Shown piece after piece: positions 3,523 to 29,587 of a DNA stretch of 64,000 bases. Position 1 is the stretch's first letter. Every line of letters begins with the position of its first letter. The stretch is taken from NCBI GenBank assembly GCA_051047955.1, contig JBPGPT010000051.1:1-64000 (forward strand), written 5' to 3'. Below the pieces are notes generated by a model. It worked only from the letters and a program-made list of their open reading frames with translations, had not been told where the DNA came from and searched no databases. The DNA is from Cystobasidiomycetes sp. EMM_F5. Lineage: Eukaryota. A program made the translations under genes and the position numbers.

Positions 3523-4968
3523 CTAATGTACGTAGACTAAGCTGATCAGAGCAAGGGCCGTGAGTATACAAAATGTCCGTGATGTGGGTGATTGCAGGGA
3601 CGTTCCGCCGTTGTTGGCTGCAGTTTGTCCGACCTGCAGAGAGCTGCTCGTAGGCAGGGAACTGTTGGCTATACAATTTGAGGTAATGCACAAAGTGGTC
3701 CGCTCAATGGCTTTACCCGGGTCACCGGGACCGGTAGCTCCATCTGACCATTTGTATTGGCCGAAAATAAACGTTTGTGCCGGGTCACTTTTGAGCAGGG
3801 CTTTGTTTCCCCATTTGCCAACCTGCTGTAGGTAGCCGACTCCAGGCGGACCGGCCGACCATGTTGACGCGTTCCGTCCACCAGCAGTGACAAAACCCGA
3901 TGTCTTGCTATACCAGTAGCCGTCATAGTTCTTTGCCGCGTCCCACCTGGTAGTCGCAGTTGTTGTATCGTATACGAGGCCAATGATGTTTGGCACCAGA
4001 TTGAAGACGCCGGCAACGGGATAGTTTGCGTGACCTCCCTTGGCAACGTATACAATGGGTCTTTGTCCCTCCTTCTGCATGGCGCTGAACTCATACGCGG
4101 CTCCATCATTATGCTGAGATAAGAACATGTAACGAGGCTGCCCATCGTAAAAGCGGATCATAAGGTGTTCGATGTCTGAAAGCTGTAAATTGGGTGAGCG
4201 TTTAGCTAAATTGGACCAATGACAGGCAAAATGGTGCCGGACATACGTGGTTACCGTATGTCTCGCCTCCTACATTGTCGCCTTGGTTGAATGAGTAAAA
4301 TAAGAAATAGAAGACGTCCACCACTCCCGGCGCAACACTGGCTGTTTTGTTGACAGCGATAATGGTAACGTTTCCTCCTGAGTAGCCACTCGAATCCGGC
4401 TTGCCGTAATATCCATGCCACCAGTCAGGATACGGAGTAGCGGTCAGATTATTCTGAGACAGGAAGAGTCCGGTACTGATAGTAAAGTTGAGGTTGGCGA
4501 GTGTTAAGGGTTTCGGATAATTCGTCATCGGGGTATAGTCGCTCCATGGCGTCAAGAAGGCTGCAATGGTAGTACTAAGTCATATAACAGTATGGCGTTA
4601 TGGTAGCACTAACATAAATGATACGCCCACGAACTAGGCCAGTATTCTTCGCCATCCGCAAGATAGAGTACAGGAGCATAGGTGATTGCGTAATCAGGCA
4701 GATAAGGATTCGCTGTTGATAAAGGTGTCGATGGAACGTTTGTCGTGTTTTGAGCGTCTTTCGGGTTTGGTTGGCTATCTGGGAGGAGTATACTTGTCGA
4801 TGACGAACGGGAAGAAGATGTCGCAGGGTTTTGGCGAGCGATAAGCGTGGGTAGCTCGGCTTTCTTCACATTCCGGATGACCTGAGATTGCGCAGTAGGC
4901 TGTAAGGCCGCGTCGACAGAGATGGCGAGCAGACTGATTGACAGAATCGCTTTCGCTCTGACAATCAT
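3523..4968 (-). CDS. Vps62/DUF946-like secreted, probably GPI-anchored protein
   Basis: N-terminal signal peptide. Motifs YAPVLYLADGEEYWPSS, YFLFYSFNQG, GNHV..IEH.MIRF, FLSQHNDG and VYVAKGGHANY. Ser/Thr-rich then hydrophobic C-terminus. Two introns. Confidence 0.75.
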
Positions 4969-5380
4969 GCCGAGCGATTGATGAGGGTGGCGAGCCAAGC
5001 AGGAAGAGGAAGAAGCAGAGCGCCTTGCTTCCGAATGCGTGCTGGCGACGGCGGCGGCCTCAAATGATACAGTGGTAGGAAGATGGTCTACAATCTTCGA
5101 AACCTCTCCCTGTCCCGTTGGCTCTGGCCGCTTTGGGAGAAAAATGACTCACGTGATTTTTAGAGATCTACATTATTCAGATTCAAATGGGAAAATACGA
5201 TAATTCTTCTACGATATCTCTCTGGCAGAGCATTCAATGAACGATTTCAACTGAGTGCAAGAATGCGAGAAGAGGGGAAGATCGCTCAATGCAAAATGCA
5301 ACCGGCTGAAAAGACTGTGTGTCCAATATGAACGCACACATGACCTTGCCGTCATATTGAAAATGCCCGGCTAGCTCAGT

Positions 5381-5439
5381 GTAAGCTTAAAGCATAATGC
5401 CGTCCTGTCTTCGAAAATTCTCACACATATCCTTATCAG
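5381..5439 (+). other. Spliceosomal-type (GT-AG) intron inside the tRNA D-loop, between tRNA positions 16 and 17
   Basis: 59 nt long. 5' GTAAGC, branch-like CTCAC at 5420-5424, pyrimidine-rich CCTTAT, 3' CAG. Size and signals match the mRNA introns elsewhere in the window. Confidence 0.8.
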
Positions 5440-5460
5440 CGGTAGAGCATTAGACTCTTA

Positions 5461-5478
5461 CGTGCACTGCATGGGAAT
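5461..5478 (+). other. Canonical tRNA intron at position 37/38
   Basis: 18 nt (CGTGCACTGCATGGGAAT) starting one base 3' of the CTT anticodon. Its removal restores a 7-nt anticodon loop. Confidence 0.9.
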
Positions 5479-5518
5479 ATCTAATTGTCGCGGGTTCGAG
5501 CCCCGCGTTGGGCTCCTC

Positions 5519-5523
5519 TTTTT
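5519..5523 (+). terminator. RNA polymerase III oligo-T terminator of the tRNA gene
   Basis: TTTTT beginning 5 nt after the discriminator base. Confidence 0.7.
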
Positions 5524-5642
5524 ACCGGTTGGCTTCTACTGGAATGCATGCGAAACATTGTCCCTTTTTGCGCTGAACTTGAGAGTCGCTCGACGCATCT
5601 CCTTGCTCGCGCCTGTCCCCATACTTGCACGATGCCTGAATA

Positions 5643-8600
5643 ATGACAGACTCTGTTAACACTTCCCGCTCAGGCTCGCCCAGCACACCTCACCGAAAGC
5701 CGTCGCAGGATGCGCACCCTTTGGTCGATGACGATGGCAATACCGCTCCAGACAAGACCGCCAGTAAGGCCGCAGCGAGCAATCCCATCCCGTATAAAGC
5801 TAGAACTCGCCAGTCTCCATCATCACGGGCTAGTACGGCCATGTCGGGAGCGCCTGTGTTGACTTCGCCCAAAAATATCATACCAACGGTTGCTGCAACA
5901 TTGTCGAATACCGTCCCATCACCCACCTCTAGCGAACGGTTGAGTGGAAATCCCTCAAAGGTTGCATCCAAGCTCAAATTGCAAAGTCTGTACTCGTCCC
6001 TAGCGGTTGCCGGCTTGCAACCCAATAGCGCAGGTTGGCTGCTTGTGCAGAAGCTTGTCGCGGAACCAGCCTCCGACACTCAGCACTTATTGGGTACGAT
6101 TCTAGGTTCTGGGAAAGTGTGTCTGTTGTTACCGCTCGAGGAGATGAGTGCTTCAGACATCGACATGGATTTCATCAAGCGCCATACAATTCTCAGAGAC
6201 GAGGCTTCCATCATAACGTTGACAGGCTTACGAGGGATAGTATCAGAGTATGTAGCTGCTTTGCGCTGGTCAGTAGTTCTCCCGTACCTGATCTATTGTT
6301 CCGTTAGCAATACTATCAGCCTGCAGAGTGCCGGTGCTGACATAAATACAGACGACATCGCAGCGTTCGAGTCTGTCCTCTCAAACTTGGCGCAGCATAC
6401 GTCTCTGACGACCAAGCCAGGGCCGTCTGCGACTGACATTGTGCTAGGCATGCCAATCGACATCTATCTGTCCACAACTCCATCCGGTGCCGCTGCAGGT
6501 CCAGCTAAACCACCTACCCGTCGCTCATTGGTGAGCCTGTTTGGCGGTCAGCGAGCGCCATCATATGCATCGTCAGACCCGGCAGGTTTGGCGCCAGCTG
6601 CGATTATGGAAGTTTCCTCTACAGCTCAGCAACGCGTGACTGCTTGGCCTGTACAGCGCATCCTACGTCATGAACAATTGTCAGCTGCAATCACATCGCA
6701 TGAAGGTTCGAGAATTCGTACTAGACTTGAAAACCAAGACAGACTGGTAAAGGAGATGACGCTTTCGTCAGTTGCCAGGACCTGTTTTGCTACAAACAGC
6801 ACCATCTGAATGCTTGCTTTCGCAGCCTACTATCTCGTTTTGATCAATCTGCCCACACAAATGTTGAGTATGTATCGTCTCCGGAAGTGGATACCCCGCA
6901 TCAATCTCTAGTTGGAGCACACGTGGATACGCTAACGTCGGTGATTCAAGAATTTTACTTTGATGCTCGATCTCGAATGGAGGATGCAAGAAGCGAACGT
7001 ACGGCGCTGCAGGAAGCGCTTAACGTAAACGATTATACCAGCTTAGCAGAATCTGCGGACAATCAAAGTCTCGACGAAGAGTTGGAAGAGCTCGAGGCAT
7101 TCTTGTGCGAGGAACTGTATGAACAGTACGTTGTCTATGCTGACAACCATCGTACACCGAGCTCCATGGCTGAATGACATGAAGTCTGTTTTCGCCTTCG
7201 GGGTCCAGTGATCGGATAGAGGACGAAGCTCTCTCTTCTCGTATTGCTGCGCTGAATATGCTCGATCTGAGCTTGAAACATTTGGGAGTCTCTTTCGACG
7301 ACGCGTCAGACTGGAGTGAGCATCGCCAGACATTGAGCGAGGGTCTGGAGGCTGTGATTACATCATGCATCTCAGGTAGGTGTCGCACACATAATTTGTT
7401 TTTTATCGTGCCTGATATTGTAATTTACAGAGTTTTCGTCACTCAGCAACAAAGATTGTCGCAGTCCTGCAGCCAAGCTCGATGTACTTATTCGCGTACA
7501 CAAAAGTATCGCAGACTCTCTTGGAACGCTACCACCTATCCGCCTCATATCTGAGGACGAAGACAACGACGTACGCGGACCACCGGCCACTTTAGAGCTG
7601 AAGACCACTCCAGCGTCCCTCCGCGACAATCCGTCCGTCGCAACGGAGGTTAAAAATTCAGAAGCGGCCACCGAGCTACCAGAGGAGAAGACACCCAAAT
7701 TCTTAGCTTCGCAAACGGCTTCGTCGGAAGGCTTACCGATACCATCGATACAATTACCTAAAGCAGCATCAACGATAGAGGGCTATTCCAATTTGGCCAC
7801 ATCAACAATAATCACTCGGAATAGTGATACATTGGAAACACCCTTCGTGGGTACATCACTTAAGCGGCCAGAGAGCGACCGAACTATTCCGTCATCTAAG
7901 ATCAGTGCAGATGCAATACTTCCTTTACTGATATACGCTGTCGTGCAAGCAAATCCTTATAAGCTGGTCTCTAACGTATTATTCGTCCAGCGTTTCCGCA
8001 GCGACCATCTGATGCGGGGCGAAGGAGAATATTGCCTTACAAACATGGACGCCGTTCGTGCCTTTCTCACGAATTGCGATATTGCTTCGCTAGGCTTGAC
8101 GACCGATAAATTGGCGCTGTAGGTAATACTCTCACATCCGCTGAAGCACGCACTCACGCTGTCGTGTACGCCGCAGTCCGACTTCGCCAGTCCACCGGTC
8201 AAGGATGAGAGATCACGCAGCGCAGAGTCTAGATCATATGGTCGGTTCTGCAGGTAAAGTACTGGGACTAGCCGGAGATATCGGACTCGGCGGAGTGCGA
8301 ATTATGGGCGGGCTTCTGACGCGGACTGGCGCTACATTTGACGCTCGACAGCCACGAACGGTTGAAGATGTACAAAGTGTTCTCTCCGGAGGCGATAACA
8401 ACAAGCAGAGGAGTCTACGCGATGCCCTATTCCGGCGTGGGACTGTCGCCTCTGTCAAGCCTAGAATTGAGACGGAAATGGCGAATGTCATTCCCGCTTC
8501 CCCGCCGACTGGAGAGACTGGAGCGACAGCAGATAATGGAGAACCACAGAAGGCTGCTGAGCCCGTCAGCACAAACAACACGCTCGCTTCACGACTCGCC

Positions 8601-14411: not shown

Positions 14412-17400
14412 TCACTTCTGCTTCAAGGTCACATTGACACGTTGAGCTTTCGAAGCCGGATGTCAGCATATATAGATCGACTAGTGTTAACAACTGCAAG
14501 CTTACAGGATGCCAAGTCAATGAAGATATCGTCCGGTGCGCCTCTGTAGAGAGGTTGCTTCAGACGCTTCTGATCCAAGTAGTGACCAATGAAGCCGATG
14601 GATCGTCCGAGCACAAAGAGGGCATTGAGTGTACCGATGGAAAGGTACTCGGATGCCTCTTCAGCGGTGAAGGCGCCAGATGTCTTCAAAAGATCGCAGA
14701 AGCAGGCAGCGACTGCACCGTCGACATTGAGGATGAGAGTATCCTTCTTTGCTGTTGTCACCTTTTCAGTGGCAATGGCGTAGTCGAGTGTGGTCGTCGA
14801 GGGGAATTCCTTTTTGGCGAACGCCTTTACCAGCTCAACTCGGAGATCTGGATTGTTGACGCTCTTAATCTTGTGCCCGATACCAGGAATGAGCTTGTTA
14901 GCCTTGCGCATGGAGTCGACGAATTCTCTTGGGGTCAAACCCATGTCCTGTGCACGAGTGAACTCCTTGGCAGCATTGTCCAAAGCACCACCGAATCGGT
15001 CACCAATGGTCAAGAGACCAGATACGACGGACGAGATGAGATCCTTGCCAGCACGGGTGGTAATGATGGTATTCATGGCACCAGAGACGGCTGGACCGTG
15101 GTCGGCGGTCAGCTGAATGACCATCTCGAGGAACTTGCACGCGTAGGCGGGCAGGCGACGCTTGAACCAAAGCAAGCTGATGACACCACCAATGCCAATC
15201 TCTTCCTTGAAAACGTCCGAGATTGGCATTCCAGAGTAGAGGAGTTCTTGGCCGCGCTCGTCCGAGATGGTCGAGATGAAGCTGGCAGATTTTCGGACCA
15301 TACCAAGCTCTTGAGCCCACTTGTAATCGACGGGGATAGACGGAGGAATACGTTCTGCCTGAGGAACGATAAGACCCTGTTGAACGAGCTGCTGATAGGC
15401 GGATCTGAGGACGTCTGGCAGCTCTTCAAAGGTGTCTGGAACAATGAAGCCCGCAGCCCTCATTTCCCTGTTCTTGGCTTCTGCAGTCTCCATGTCTGAG
15501 TTTGCCATGGAACCAGCGTGTCCGAATTGAACTTCGCTCGTAAACATCTTTGCGCAGGTACCGATAGCCCAAGCGACAATTGGCTTCTTGATTGTGCCAT
15601 TCATGACGGCCTCGATGACCTTGTACTCTTCGATACCACCCACCTCACCGAGGAGGACGAGCATCTTTACATTGTCATCATTCTCGTATCGGAGCATGTG
15701 GTCGATAAAGGTGGTTCCAGGGTACCGATCGCCTCCAATAGCAATACCTTCGTACGTGCCATTGGTGGTGAAGGAGAGGATATTGTTGAGCTCGTTGGAC
15801 ATACCACCAGACTTGGAGACGTATGCAACAGAACCTGGTCTGTACAGCTTGGACGAGATGATGTTGTCCATCATGCCACCAGTGTTGCCGATACGGAAGC
15901 AGCCTGGTTTAATACCACCGACAGTAGCAGGACCAATGATCAAGACCTTCTTTGCCTTTGCAGCATGGAGAATCTCGCGAGCATGCCTCTCCGGAACACC
16001 TTCAGCAATCAGAGCAATGGAGCGGATCTGAGGGAAGCGCAGAGCGTCGAGTGTGGAGGAATAGACGGAACGGCATGAAGCAAAGTTGACGAGGACATCT
16101 GCATCTGGGCACTTTTTGACGGCCTCCTCTACGGAAGTGTAGACAGGAAGGAGGGTCTCCTTCGTTCCCCAGTAAAACTTTTGAACGTGGTGACCGCCAA
16201 ATTGATAAATCATGGCAGCAACACTGGGAGTAGATCGACCGCAGGCGTAGTCAAAGTCGAGCATACCCTGGATAGCACGCGGTTGCAGACCAAACACGAG
16301 CGACCGAGTCTTTTCGTCGTAGGGTCTGTACCACGGTCGTTGAGCTGGTGCGTCCTTGCCATCGAAGGTAATGACATCGCTTCGCTTGTCTGGGAGGGTA
16401 TTTGAGCTTTGACCTTGAGTCGGGCTTCCGGCACGAGATGGCACAACAGAGGCGACTGGGCTCTTGTTTGCACCATTGACAGCGAGGGAACCGTTCACTC
16501 TTGGCTTTGGAGCGGCGATGCCTGCAGTAATCGAAGCAGCAGCTTTAGGCTTGCCAACACCGAGAGCAAGAGGAACAATCTCTGTAATATGGGTTTCTGG
16601 TCCAAAGACCTGAATCTCCACGCCAAGAGTCTCGCCGAGCAGTCTCATATTCTTGAGACCCTCCTGGTAGTTTGGTCCACCACGTCGGACAAAGATGCGG
16701 ACCTTGTGCGTTTGCAGATTGGTCTGGTACTGCTTGAGAGCGCGGATGATACCCTTGAAAGTCGACGCGACATTTGTAAAATTGGCAATACCACCACCGA
16801 TAATGAGAATCTTGCCTTCAGGATTCGGGGTTCCTCGGGTCATCAGGTCGACTAAATAATTACGAACAGTGATACTTCAGGTTGTGATGGTTGACAAAGG
16901 GTGACGAGCAACTTACGAATGGTCTTTGCGTACTCATACGTTTGGCCCTCAGTTGGAGCACCAGAGTACTCGCCGTAGTTTGCCAATTCGCTCGCGAAGC
17001 CGTACGCGGCGATAGCATCGGAGTAGACGACTGAAGCACCACCACCGGCGACCATTGTCCACACTCTGCCCTCCTGGTTGAGGACTGTCAATTTGAGAGA
17101 AGCGCCTGTCGAAGCATCCAATTTCTGAATGTAGGCTTCCTCCTTTGTCAGATCACGACCGAAAGGTGCTGGCCAGACCATGGGTGGACCTCTATCTGCT
17201 GAAATCTTACTGGACGACGAAGCATCGCCGATGGACGTATCCCTTGCAATTGCCCATTTGGGACCGCAGATGAAGTCGGCCGTCTGATCTAGCTTTGCAG
17301 CCATGTCGAGGTAATGAATCTGGGGAGGGGAGGTTGGGGTAGCATCGAGGCAGATGAGTGGATTGATTTCGAGGTATGCAAAGTGAAGATCGACGTAGAC

Positions 17401-25947: not shown

Positions 25948-28900
25948 ATGGGGCCGCGCAAAGACAGTATCAACAACGGACGTCCACTCATCAAACACTT
26001 ACACGAAGAGAATTTTACAGGTGGGCGGCCCTTCCTACTCTTAATTACGACGAGTGCTGACTGACAGACTATAATACTCCCTTCCCGCAATGAATGCTGC
26101 GTGAACAATGCCAAATATGTAGGCGCTACACCCGTGACGAAACGGCTATCGGGCCAGTATCACCAGTATAACTCCAGTGCCGCGCCTAGTAGTCTACCAT
26201 ATTCATACTCTTCAGGCTCGCTGTACCAGTCAACACCGACGTCAAGTTCCGATGCCGGCAACCTCACGCAAACGCCAATTGCTGCTGCCTTTGCAAGGAG
26301 GCCGTCCGAGCCGTCTGGTCTGTCTGGTATGATGGTTCCCAACGCAGGCGAGAGTGCTATTGTCCCAAAGCGCGCTGCTCCCCTCCCTCCGTTGCATACT
26401 CACACAGCATACTCATCAGTCCCGCAAGGAGAGTCGATGGAATCACCGACTGCTGGAGGCAGTGGAGCTCTCCGGTCGTCCTATGTCGTTAGCAGTCGAC
26501 ACCCTCTCAATTCGCAGCACCACTTTCCGCAGCCATCCTCCCTGAAAAGCAGTACAAGCGGTCCCCCAAGCAACGGAAATGCATTCGATCCCTCTATGTC
26601 ATCAAGCCTACTTCAAGCACATCCAGGACTGATTTCGACGCAGAGCTCGCCGTCCGTCTTACCGTATAGTGCTTACAATATATCTGGTCCAATGTCACCA
26701 GCAGCTGCAGCTACGACTCGATTTAGAAACGCTACTGCACCTGCGGTGGGGTCGTCAGATGCTATCGATGGGCATGGTCTGGCGTCCAGAAATATACCGA
26801 CAACACTCGGGGGCGGTGCTTGGGAATTGCTCGAAGAGCCGATTGACTTACAGGAAGGCTCTGCATTTAGCTCAAATCGTAAAATGCCCCTTACATCTCG
26901 TCAGGCGACACAACCGTACTATCAGACGACAAACGGTGGCTTTTCTGGCTATGGCCGCAGGTCAACCGGTTCGGGAGGCTCGGCTGGATCTAGGCCTTCG
27001 TCACTGTTGGCAGCGACACAAGCCGCTGGTTCGGCAGCTGCATATAGTGCGATGGGTAGTAACAATCTCCTCACGGATCCTGCTACAGAAGCCGCTGCAC
27101 AACTGGCTACAGCAACCTTGACCTCATACAGCAACTATTCGCCTACAAATGGTGTTCCGCCCTCACCAACGAGACGCTCCCCCGTTCAAAGATATTCTGG
27201 CAATTACTCGCCAGGAGGCTCGCATCTCTTCATGACGAGCGTATATCCACACAATGCGGAACTGCCGGCGACAAATGCATACGCTTCGACATCGAGTCTT
27301 ACCAATGTCGGCTCGACTTCTTCGATGGCACCCTCAAATACATCGGCTACGACCGTTGCAGAAGTCACGCGCGTGCCGAACAAGCTCATATCGTCAAGAG
27401 CCAGGCGGAGCATGTCTTTAGAAAAGGATGCTGCAATGGCAGCTCAGGTGTCGCACACTCAGCAATTTCAGCAAGCCCCTTCAGGCCTCGCCCCAACGAG
27501 CGATACGTCGCTGGCTCCATCTCTGACATCTAGCACTCACTTCCAACCTGGAGCAATGTCGCGGGATGCCCCGCGACCAATGGGAGTGCGGAAGAAGAGT
27601 TTGGGAGCTGCATCTCCGTTGCTCGGAGACGACGACGTCAGTAGAGGAAGCGGGATCAAAAGCATGTTTGGTTTACTGGGCAAGCAAAGTAAGTTCGGGC
27701 ATCGTAGTGCGCAAGCGTCTTTCAGCTAACAAGCGCTTCATAGACACTGGATCCAAAGAGAAGAAGTTTGAGATTTCTACACCCTACGATCCAGTTCATC
27801 TTACACACGTCGGATTCAACTCTGATACGGGAGAGTTTACGGGCATGCCGAAAGAATGGGACAAGCTATTGCAGGACAGTGGCATATCCCGACAGGAACA
27901 AATGGCACATCCACAGACAGTCGTTGATATTGTAGCCTTCTACCAGGATGCAACAAAGAAGGAGGCCACAAGGCCTGGCGGCGAGGACGATGATGTCTGG
28001 CAAAAGTTTGGCGGAGCTCACGTTCGTCAGCTACCCCAGCCTGGTGCAGGAAGCTCGATGCCTACTCCACCCCAACAAGATCACTTCGAGCATTTGATGC
28101 CGACTCGCGCTGCTCCAAGTCCACCGACAACATATGCACCTTACTCTGCTGCTCCGCCAGTTTATCGAAAGCCTCTTGGACCGCCTCCAGCACAGTCACA
28201 CTCAGCTAGTCTACAACAGGAAGGAGCAGCCACCTCAGCTCCGCCAGAGCCTCCAAGCAAGCTTGACAGATCTATGTCGGTGCGACATGCCCCGAGGGAA
28301 CCTAGTCGCTATCAAGGTCAACACGCCTTGGATCGATCAGCATCTCAAAGGAGGGTGCCGTCAACGGGCGGCAACACATACGAGCCAAGCTTGACCTCAC
28401 CACCGCCTCCGCTGCCTTCTTCTGGCAATGTTCATCCTCTGCCTGAATCCGCACATGCCAATTTCCAGCCGAGTCGCCCAGCTCCACCGATGCCAATGCC
28501 AGGGCTACCGGTTCCAGCGTACCTGGGTGGGCCGAGCAATATCGGCAGTAGTCCCACGGTCGATCAGGCCGCAGCTATGCAAAGCGCCACAGCTTTGACA
28601 TCGGCACCACCGTCAATGAAAGCTCCGAAAGCGGAAAACGGAGAAACTGGAGACGTCCCTGTCGCAGTACCTCGCCGCAGGAAAGTGGACACCCAAGCCG
28701 AGCACGAAGCAGTCGTTGCGAGGTTACGGGAGATATGCACTGATGCAAATCCTACCAAGTTGTATCGCTCGCTTGTCAAGATTGGTCAGGGTGCATCAGG
28801 CGGCGTCTTTACAGCCTATCAGGTTGGGACAAACATGTCAGTTGCCATAAAGCAGATGAATCTCGAACAACAACCAAAGAAGGACGCCATCATTAACGAA

Positions 28901-29587
28901 ATCGTGGTCATGCGAGAGTCGCGGCATCGCAACATCGTTAACTTTATCGATTCATTTCTGTACAAGGGCGATCTCTGGGTAGTCATGGAGTACATGGAGG
29001 GCGGCTCGCTTACCGATGTTTGCACGACCAACATCATGACTGAAGGGCAGATTGCGGCTGTGAGTCGGGAAACGTTGGAAGGGATCAAGCACCTGCATGC
29101 CAACGGCATTATCCACCGCGACATCAAGAGCGACAATGTCTTGCTTAGCATGGATGGCGAGATCAAGCTTACAGACTTTGGCTTTTGCGCTCAGATTAGT
29201 GATGCGAATGCCAAACGGACGACAATGGTGGGCACGCCTTACTGGATGGCGCCAGAGGTAGTAAAGCGAGAGCGATATGGCTCGAAAATTGACATTTGGT
29301 CCTGCGGAATTATGGCCCTCGAAATGGTCGACGGCGAACCACCCTACCTTCACGAGAATCCGCTTAGAGCCATCTACCTGATCGCCACTACTGGCACGCC
29401 GAAGATCAAGGATCCCGAGCGGTTCTCTTCGGCCTTCAGAGATTATCTGAGTCGCGCCCTAAATGTGGTACCGGAAATGCGCCCTTCAGCCAATGAGATT
29501 CTCCAGCATCCCTTCTTTGCGACGGCGGAGCCACTCAAGAATCTCTATCCACTCATTAAAGCTGCAATTCAGGCCAAGAAGAAGTGA
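25948..29587 (+). CDS. STE20: PAK kinase Ste20 (CRIB plus kinase domain, no PH domain seen)
   Basis: CRIB motif EISTPYDPVHLTHVGF, GQGASGGV, HRDIKSDN, DFGFCAQI, TMVGTPYWMAPE and a C-terminal G-beta-binding-like LYPLIKAA. Two introns. Confidence 0.92.

Follow-up and report, generated by a model that had tools for sequence, protein, structure and literature searches.

Can a nuclear tRNA gene carry an intron of the mRNA type, and would a precursor interrupted in this way still be matured into a tRNA? The question is raised by a tRNA-Lys(CTT) gene that reads as three pieces with two inserts between them, on the plus strand at 5365-5514 of a 64-kb stretch of DNA (64,000 nucleotides), to which we will refer as the window. 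Eukaryotic tRNA introns are situated between N37 and N38 and their removal is purely protein-catalysed, according to the part of PMC10275265 that deals with them. The shorter insert (18 nt) belongs to this canonical class, whereas the longer one (59 nt), which runs from GT to AG within the D-loop, does not (Table 1). An earlier note on this DNA had described a tRNA-Lys(CTT) with a 59-nt D-loop insert, and this is borne out by the sequence and by the ARAGORN call obtained after removal; the same note had missed the 18-nt intron at position 37/38. As the gene also bears this canonical intron, two splicing machineries would be needed for its maturation.

Table 1. Features of the interrupted tRNA gene and of its surroundings, in coordinates of the window.
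Feature	Position	Strand	Description	Basis
Vps62-like gene	3523-4269	-		Pfam match
tRNA-Lys(CTT) exon 1	5365-5380	+	GCCCGGCTAGCTCAGT; tRNA positions 1-16	Sequence and ARAGORN cloverleaf after removing both inserts in silico
A-box-like text	5372-5382	+	TAGCTCAGTGT; straddles the junction of exon 1 and insert	
mRNA-type (GT-AG) insert, 59 nt	5381-5439	+	D-loop, between tRNA positions 16 and 17	
Putative 5' splice site GTAAGC	5381-5386	+	First bases of the insert; fits GTRNGY	
Putative branch motif CTCAC	5420-5424	+	A at 5423, 16 nt before the 3' end of the insert	
Putative 3' splice site CAG	5437-5439	+	After pyrimidine-rich ATATCCTTAT	
Exon 2	5440-5460	+	tRNA positions 17-37; begins CGGTAGAGC	Sequence and ARAGORN cloverleaf
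Anticodon CTT	5457-5459	+	Within exon 2	
Canonical tRNA intron, 18 nt	5461-5478	+	Position 37/38	Lys(ctt) obtained on removal of 18 nt after CTCTTA
Exon 3	5479-5514	+	tRNA positions 38-73	Sequence and ARAGORN cloverleaf
B box	5493-5503	+	GGTTCGAGCCC; sole GGTTCRANNCC match in the 64-kb window	
T5 run, Pol III terminator-like	5519-5523	+	4 nt past the discriminator base	
Downstream gene	ATG 5643	+	129 nt past the tRNA end	
ATP-citrate lyase, single fused gene	14429-16843			
PAK kinase	27566-29587			Identity search

A lysine tRNA gene in three pieces

The gene is invisible to standard tools as long as its inserts are in place. ARAGORN called 0 tRNA genes on the unedited 64-kb window, and Rfam returned no match at gathering scores and none at E<=1 across its whole length, and the earlier note had expected that standard tRNA finders would likely miss such a gene or call it pseudo. 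When only 5340-5540 was searched, Rfam gave a partial tRNA match of 18.4 bits, under the gathering score of 29. Once 5381-5439 was removed alone, ARAGORN saw a tRNA and misread it as Val with a long extra arm; the removal of both inserts yielded a 73-nt tRNA-Lys(ctt) with all four stems present. Second-removal lengths of 15-21 nt were tried after CTCTTA, and Lys(ctt) was obtained from 18 nt only. As ARAGORN and Rfam both miss the gene, others built in this way would be missing from annotated tRNA sets. A SNORD25-like match on the minus strand (5370-5446; 12.1 bits vs a gathering score of 39; E of 7.6 in the 201-nt search) was rejected as due to chance; the insert and the complement of the D stem of the tRNA make up the matched text.

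Exon 1 supplies the 5' strands of the acceptor stem and of the D stem, along with AGT of the D-loop. Exon 2 continues with the D-loop bases CGGTA, the D-stem 3' strand and the anticodon stem 5' strand, up to A37, and exon 3 runs from the 3' strand of the anticodon stem through the variable loop and the T arm to the 3' strand of the acceptor and the discriminator T. The anticodon stem (TTAGA/TCTAA) and the variable loop (TTGTC) are this gene copy's own marks. After removal of the introns, the cloverleaf expected of a nuclear tRNA gene is obtained together with its conserved bases (T8, A14, G18G19, G46, C48 and a TTCGA T-loop). The restored D-loop, AGTCGGTA, is that of 7/8 environmental eukaryote-type Lys(CTT) genes, which were hand-picked among metagenome loci with the GGTA of the D-loop preset by the search pattern; the eighth has AATCGGTA. 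The claim that excision from GT to AG rebuilds the usual D-loop of tRNA-Lys(CTT) agrees with this comparison.

An arrangement of internal A and B boxes with a downstream T run, as found here, is that of a Pol III type 2 tRNA gene. The A-box consensus is TRGCNNAGTGG, and TAGCTCAGTGT fits 10/11 of its positions, with the first G of the insert preserving the match. The distance from A box to B box, 110 nt, is unusually long. TTTT is absent from both the 59-nt and the 18-nt intron, and T4-free introns are needed for Pol III read-through. A T4 run occurs in 7/12 probable mRNA introns of the window; since the other 5/12 are also without it, its absence here is weak evidence. As for folding, the whole precursor folds no better than shuffled versions of itself (z -0.39), and its predicted fold contains the acceptor, T and anticodon arms, with the D arm not formed. 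No decay is seen at the 73 exon positions, in the B box or in the terminator; the stems, B box and T5 run had already been described as intact. We take the locus to be a true nuclear gene for tRNA-Lys(CUU), in a basidiomycete-like fungus, with two introns of different kinds.

Intron signals of the D-loop insert

The 59-nt insert has the putative donor, CTNAY branch and YAG acceptor of a U2-type GT-AG intron, the branch falling in the expected range of about 10-30 nt from the 3' splice site, and its length and composition are like those of the mRNA introns inferred for this organism. Its 3' end is pyrimidine-rich (ATATCCTTATCAG, ending at 5439), and no AG occurs in the insert between the CTCAC branch and the acceptor. 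The donor, the branch motif with its spacing and the acceptor are found as first reported. The exon bases ahead of the donor are AGT, vs the usual AG, which we count against the gene being live.

Some measure of what an mRNA intron looks like in this genome can be taken from the window itself. Twelve probable introns were obtained there by bridging ORFs with GT..AG segments, a heuristic that works from sequence alone; they are 51-67 nt long with a GC content of 0.35-0.54, and the insert, at 59 nt and GC 0.39, has a similar T content. Their donors are GTNNGY, the form demanded by the filter, and their branch motifs are YTNAY, mostly CTRAY, 12-31 nt from the end. A looser second pass gave 20 intron candidates of 44-87 nt, again with GTNNGY donors as its filter demanded. 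CTCAC is a minority branch motif locally, present in 1/12 of the introns and in 2/20 of the looser candidates. The likeness to mRNA introns of the window that the earlier note had put forward thus holds for length, and the introns that it named were rechecked in part only: of the GTAAGC donors ascribed to named genes, one is found at 2963, at the end of ORF 2539-2985, a region that the earlier note calls MaoC, and CTCAC branch sites, also claimed for introns of the window, do occur among the heuristic candidates as the minority just mentioned.

Signals of this kind are rare by chance. The combination of GTAAG, YAG and a CTNAY branch 8-35 nt from the end is present in 1/127,882 of the 59-mers of the 64-kb window (both strands), and a looser version with GTRNG in 8/127,882; the loose version was reached by 5/200,000 shuffles of the insert. 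The chance rises several-fold if alternative boundary pairs with an acceptable D-loop are allowed, and remains below about 1 in 1,000. The architecture GCTCAGTGTRNG..(30-60)..YAGCGGTAGAGC had 0 matches in 596 Gb of prokaryotic genomes, in a scan with the pattern GCTCAGTGTRNGN{30,60}YAGCGGTAGAGC that serves as a chance control only.

Other classes of intron were also considered. The insert is essentially unstructured (MFE -1.1 kcal/mol, z +1.2), and a group I or group II ribozyme is ruled out, since 59 nt is too short and structure is lacking. A BHB motif with a 4/4 central helix is absent at the insert boundaries and within 3 nt of them in either orientation, and a BHB intron is ruled out for the insert on this ground; at its exact boundaries, fewer than 3/4 central-helix positions pair in either orientation. 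The same helix test applied to the 18-nt intron gave 3/4 central, 3/3 outer and 3/3 inner pairs. Without a BHB, and at position 16/17 rather than 37/38, the 59-nt insert lacks the marks of an endonuclease-type intron. No similar copy of it was found within the 64-kb window, where the best other match is 10 nt long, so that the window gives no sign of an introner-like multi-copy element.

On the grounds of its GT-AG and branch signals, its intron-like length, its lack of structure and of a BHB, and the rarity of such signals by chance, we read the insert with high confidence as an mRNA-type intron by sequence, inside an intact tRNA gene. The same reading in the earlier note is upheld at this level, with the composition and the D-loop-restoring boundaries adding to the intron anatomy.

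Maturation of the transcript and competing explanations

The reading that we favor, with a probability of roughly one half, is that the gene is live and that its precursor would be matured in two ways, the D-loop intron being spliced by the spliceosome and the 37/38 intron by endonuclease and ligase. Transcription would start from the internal A and B boxes and run through to the T5 run. In the resulting precursor, the D-loop intron would block formation of the D arm and of the elbow. GTAAGC, CTCAC and CAG would be recognised by the spliceosome through intron definition, as may be compared with the Pol III-made U6 precursor of fission yeast, and exactly 5381-5439 would be released as a lariat. 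After splicing, the RNA would fold, its ends would be processed and the anticodon intron would be lost, its 18 nt being taken out by the tRNA splicing endonuclease together with the ligase. We infer transcription, spliceosomal removal, the order of the steps and the use of the product alike. The intron probably arrived by insertion of a pre-existing intron, which may have been reverse-spliced into a nuclear pre-tRNA that was then reverse-transcribed and recombined into the genome, or else inserted at the DNA level.

The main rival to a live gene is a disabled copy, which we regard as a possible, if doubtful, explanation. An mRNA-type intron, or a fragment of one, would recently have hit one of several Lys(CTT) genes; the copy would be silent, or its transcript would be degraded rather than matured, and its exons would be intact only as the event is young. 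In the part of PMC4090602 that treats them, short insertions in the D or T arm of eukaryotic tRNA genes are said mostly to affect a single copy among many synonymous ones, and such copies are taken for pseudogenes. The split D arm and the long distance between the A and B boxes fit such a fate, as do the weak branch motif and the lack of a second example in a metagenome scan, whose collection holds few fungi. A dead gene sits less well with exons, B box and terminator that show no decay, with splice signals that fall exactly on the boundaries restoring a consensus D-loop, and with an insert free of T4 runs. Furthermore, if the gene were transcribed at all, splicing by intron definition would be expected on such signals.

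A stronger claim than that of a live gene would be that the gene works despite its interruption and is no isolated case, a Lys tRNA being made via the spliceosome and then the endonuclease in this fungus and perhaps throughout its lineage. We consider this improbable. Were it true, other tRNAs would possibly be made likewise, Pol III pre-tRNAs would be substrates of the spliceosome, and standard finders would leave gaps in the tRNA sets of such genomes.

The spliceosome is recruited most efficiently to transcripts made by Pol II, and the tRNA lies on the same strand as the ATG at 5643 and just upstream of it. The tRNA might on these grounds be hosted by a Pol II transcript, its intron being spliced co-transcriptionally like one of a 5' leader before RNase P and RNase Z free the tRNA. 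However, the gene contains a B box of its own and a T5 run comes immediately behind the tRNA, and tRNA excision would sever the mRNA leader; we hold such hosting to be quite unlikely.

Removal of the insert by the tRNA endonuclease at a relaxed BHB, as in archaea, Cyanidioschyzon merolae or nucleomorphs, seems to us highly improbable: non-canonical D-arm tRNA introns do exist in those lineages (PMC4090602 and PMC3978253, in their pertinent parts) and 11 archaeal-type Lys(CTT) genes with D-loop inserts appeared in the metagenome scan, but the present insert is unstructured and has no 4-pair central helix at its boundaries or within 3 nt of them, and the 11 archaeal-type inserts neither start with GT nor end with AG. 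That GTAAGC, CTCAC and CAG coincide in a random 59-nt insertion with no relation to introns is a very slight possibility, which gains from there being a single locus known and several acceptable boundary pairs to choose from, with several-fold higher odds, and which loses to the counts in window 59-mers, shuffles and prokaryotic DNA given above and to a length and composition that match those of local introns.

Known hosts of mRNA-type introns and the wider setting

Structured RNA genes are already known to carry mRNA-type introns; what appears to be new here is the tRNA as host and the D-loop position. The likeness to U6 snRNA is that a small, highly structured RNA gene of Pol III type is interrupted by a short GT-AG intron whose donor, branch and acceptor are canonical; the differences are that the host here is a tRNA and that the gene also carries an endonuclease-type intron. 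To our knowledge, a tRNA is not a component of the spliceosome and has no known contact with its active site. The U6 intron is reportedly shown by experiment to be spliced, in the work of Tani and Ohshima, and the tRNA-Lys insert is known from sequence alone.

Introns of mRNA type in the U6 snRNA of fission yeast and other fungi are covered by the relevant section of PMC5855946 (citing Tani and Ohshima, 1989, 1991; Canzler et al., 2016). Beyond these signals the U6 intron shows no sequence conservation, as would hold for the present one too, and reverse splicing has been proposed as its way of insertion (PMC5855946, same section). In 2018, the U6, U2, U5 and U1 snRNA genes and rRNA genes were given there as hosts of spliceosomal introns (PMC5855946). 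Others are the fungal U3 snoRNA, U1, U2 and U5 of Rhodotorula hasegawae, and ascomycete rRNA, as described in parts of PMC5832005, PMC5855946 and PMC2586383. As of 2017, frequent interruption was known among small structured RNAs for U3 and U6 only, U3 introns being broadly present in Basidiomycota (PMC5832005, in the part on such introns). All these non-coding RNA genes carry spliceosomal introns of the normal kind, which are common in Basidiomycota and are called from sequence signals, with few experimentally tested, and in this the tRNA-Lys insert resembles them; the difference is that the hosts named in the corresponding sections of PMC5832005 and PMC5855946 include no tRNA. Searches of open-access PMC and bioRxiv turned up no tRNA gene reported to contain a spliceosomal intron.

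Interruption of the D arm is known from another setting. Archaea and C. merolae have non-canonical D-arm tRNA introns with BHB motifs, and nucleomorphs have non-canonical D-arm introns that are removed in a way not yet understood, according to the sections of PMC4090602 and PMC3978253 devoted to them. Such genes resemble the present one in having more than one intron per tRNA gene, one of them in the D arm, and in being missed by standard finders (see also PMC9602550). They differ in that their introns are flanked by a BHB and cut by the endonuclease, whereas the 59-nt insert is unstructured, GT-AG bounded and without a BHB.

If the tRNA needs the spliceosome, it would represent a new host class for mRNA-type introns. 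Pol III pre-tRNAs could then enter the spliceosome, tRNA supply would be coupled to splicing capacity, and the case would bear on how introns spread, e.g., by reverse splicing into abundant nuclear RNAs. If the gene is dead, it would still be a clean natural case of an intron landing in a non-mRNA target.

The tRNA gene sits in a divergent intergenic region, between the minus-strand Vps62-like gene and a plus-strand gene that the earlier note calls VPS9, for whose 388-aa first ORF Pfam gave no family. The T5 run ends only about 120 nt ahead of the same-strand ATG of the latter, and with so short a distance the transcription units of the tRNA and of the downstream gene would overlap or leave very little room between them. 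Other genes of the window are those for a fused ATP-citrate lyase, DNA polymerase epsilon and a PAK kinase. The best named relatives of the PAK kinase come from basidiomycetes (Tilletia, Rhodotorula, Ustilago and others), with an identity that reaches 75% and applies to the kinase domain alone; among near-full-length matches the next best is 63% identical, and no close named relative came up in the search. The host is a fungus, probably a basidiomycete, and seems to belong to a lineage that has been poorly sampled.

A metagenome scan with the pattern TAGCTCAGN{42,72}GGTAGAGCNNNNNNCTCTTA gave 114 matches at 113 loci. A spliceosomal-type insert was present in 0/114 of them, which says little about relatives of this fungus, as the collection holds few fungi. 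In 97 of the matches an intact gene is preceded by a duplicated tRNA 5' fragment, 11 are archaeal-type genes interrupted in the D-loop, and 6 are neither. A loose GT..AG text filter was passed by 22/114; these were rejected as spliceosomal inserts, since all of them begin with D-loop text such as GGTAGA and are hence tRNA fragments. The D-loop inserts of the 11 archaeal-looking tRNA-Lys(CTT) loci (L022, L034, L042, L044, L067, L070, L080, L081, L097, L099 and L112) are 43-71 nt long, with neither a GT start nor an AG end, and in several of these genes a far-downstream acceptor 3' strand implies a further intron after the anticodon. In the 97 matches with duplicated fragments (e.g., L008, L013, L014, L012, L016 and L019), the partial tRNA 5' copy lies 40-70 nt upstream of an intact tRNA-Lys; a GC-rich, hairpin-like stretch often comes after it, and the arrangement is recurrent on many unrelated contigs.
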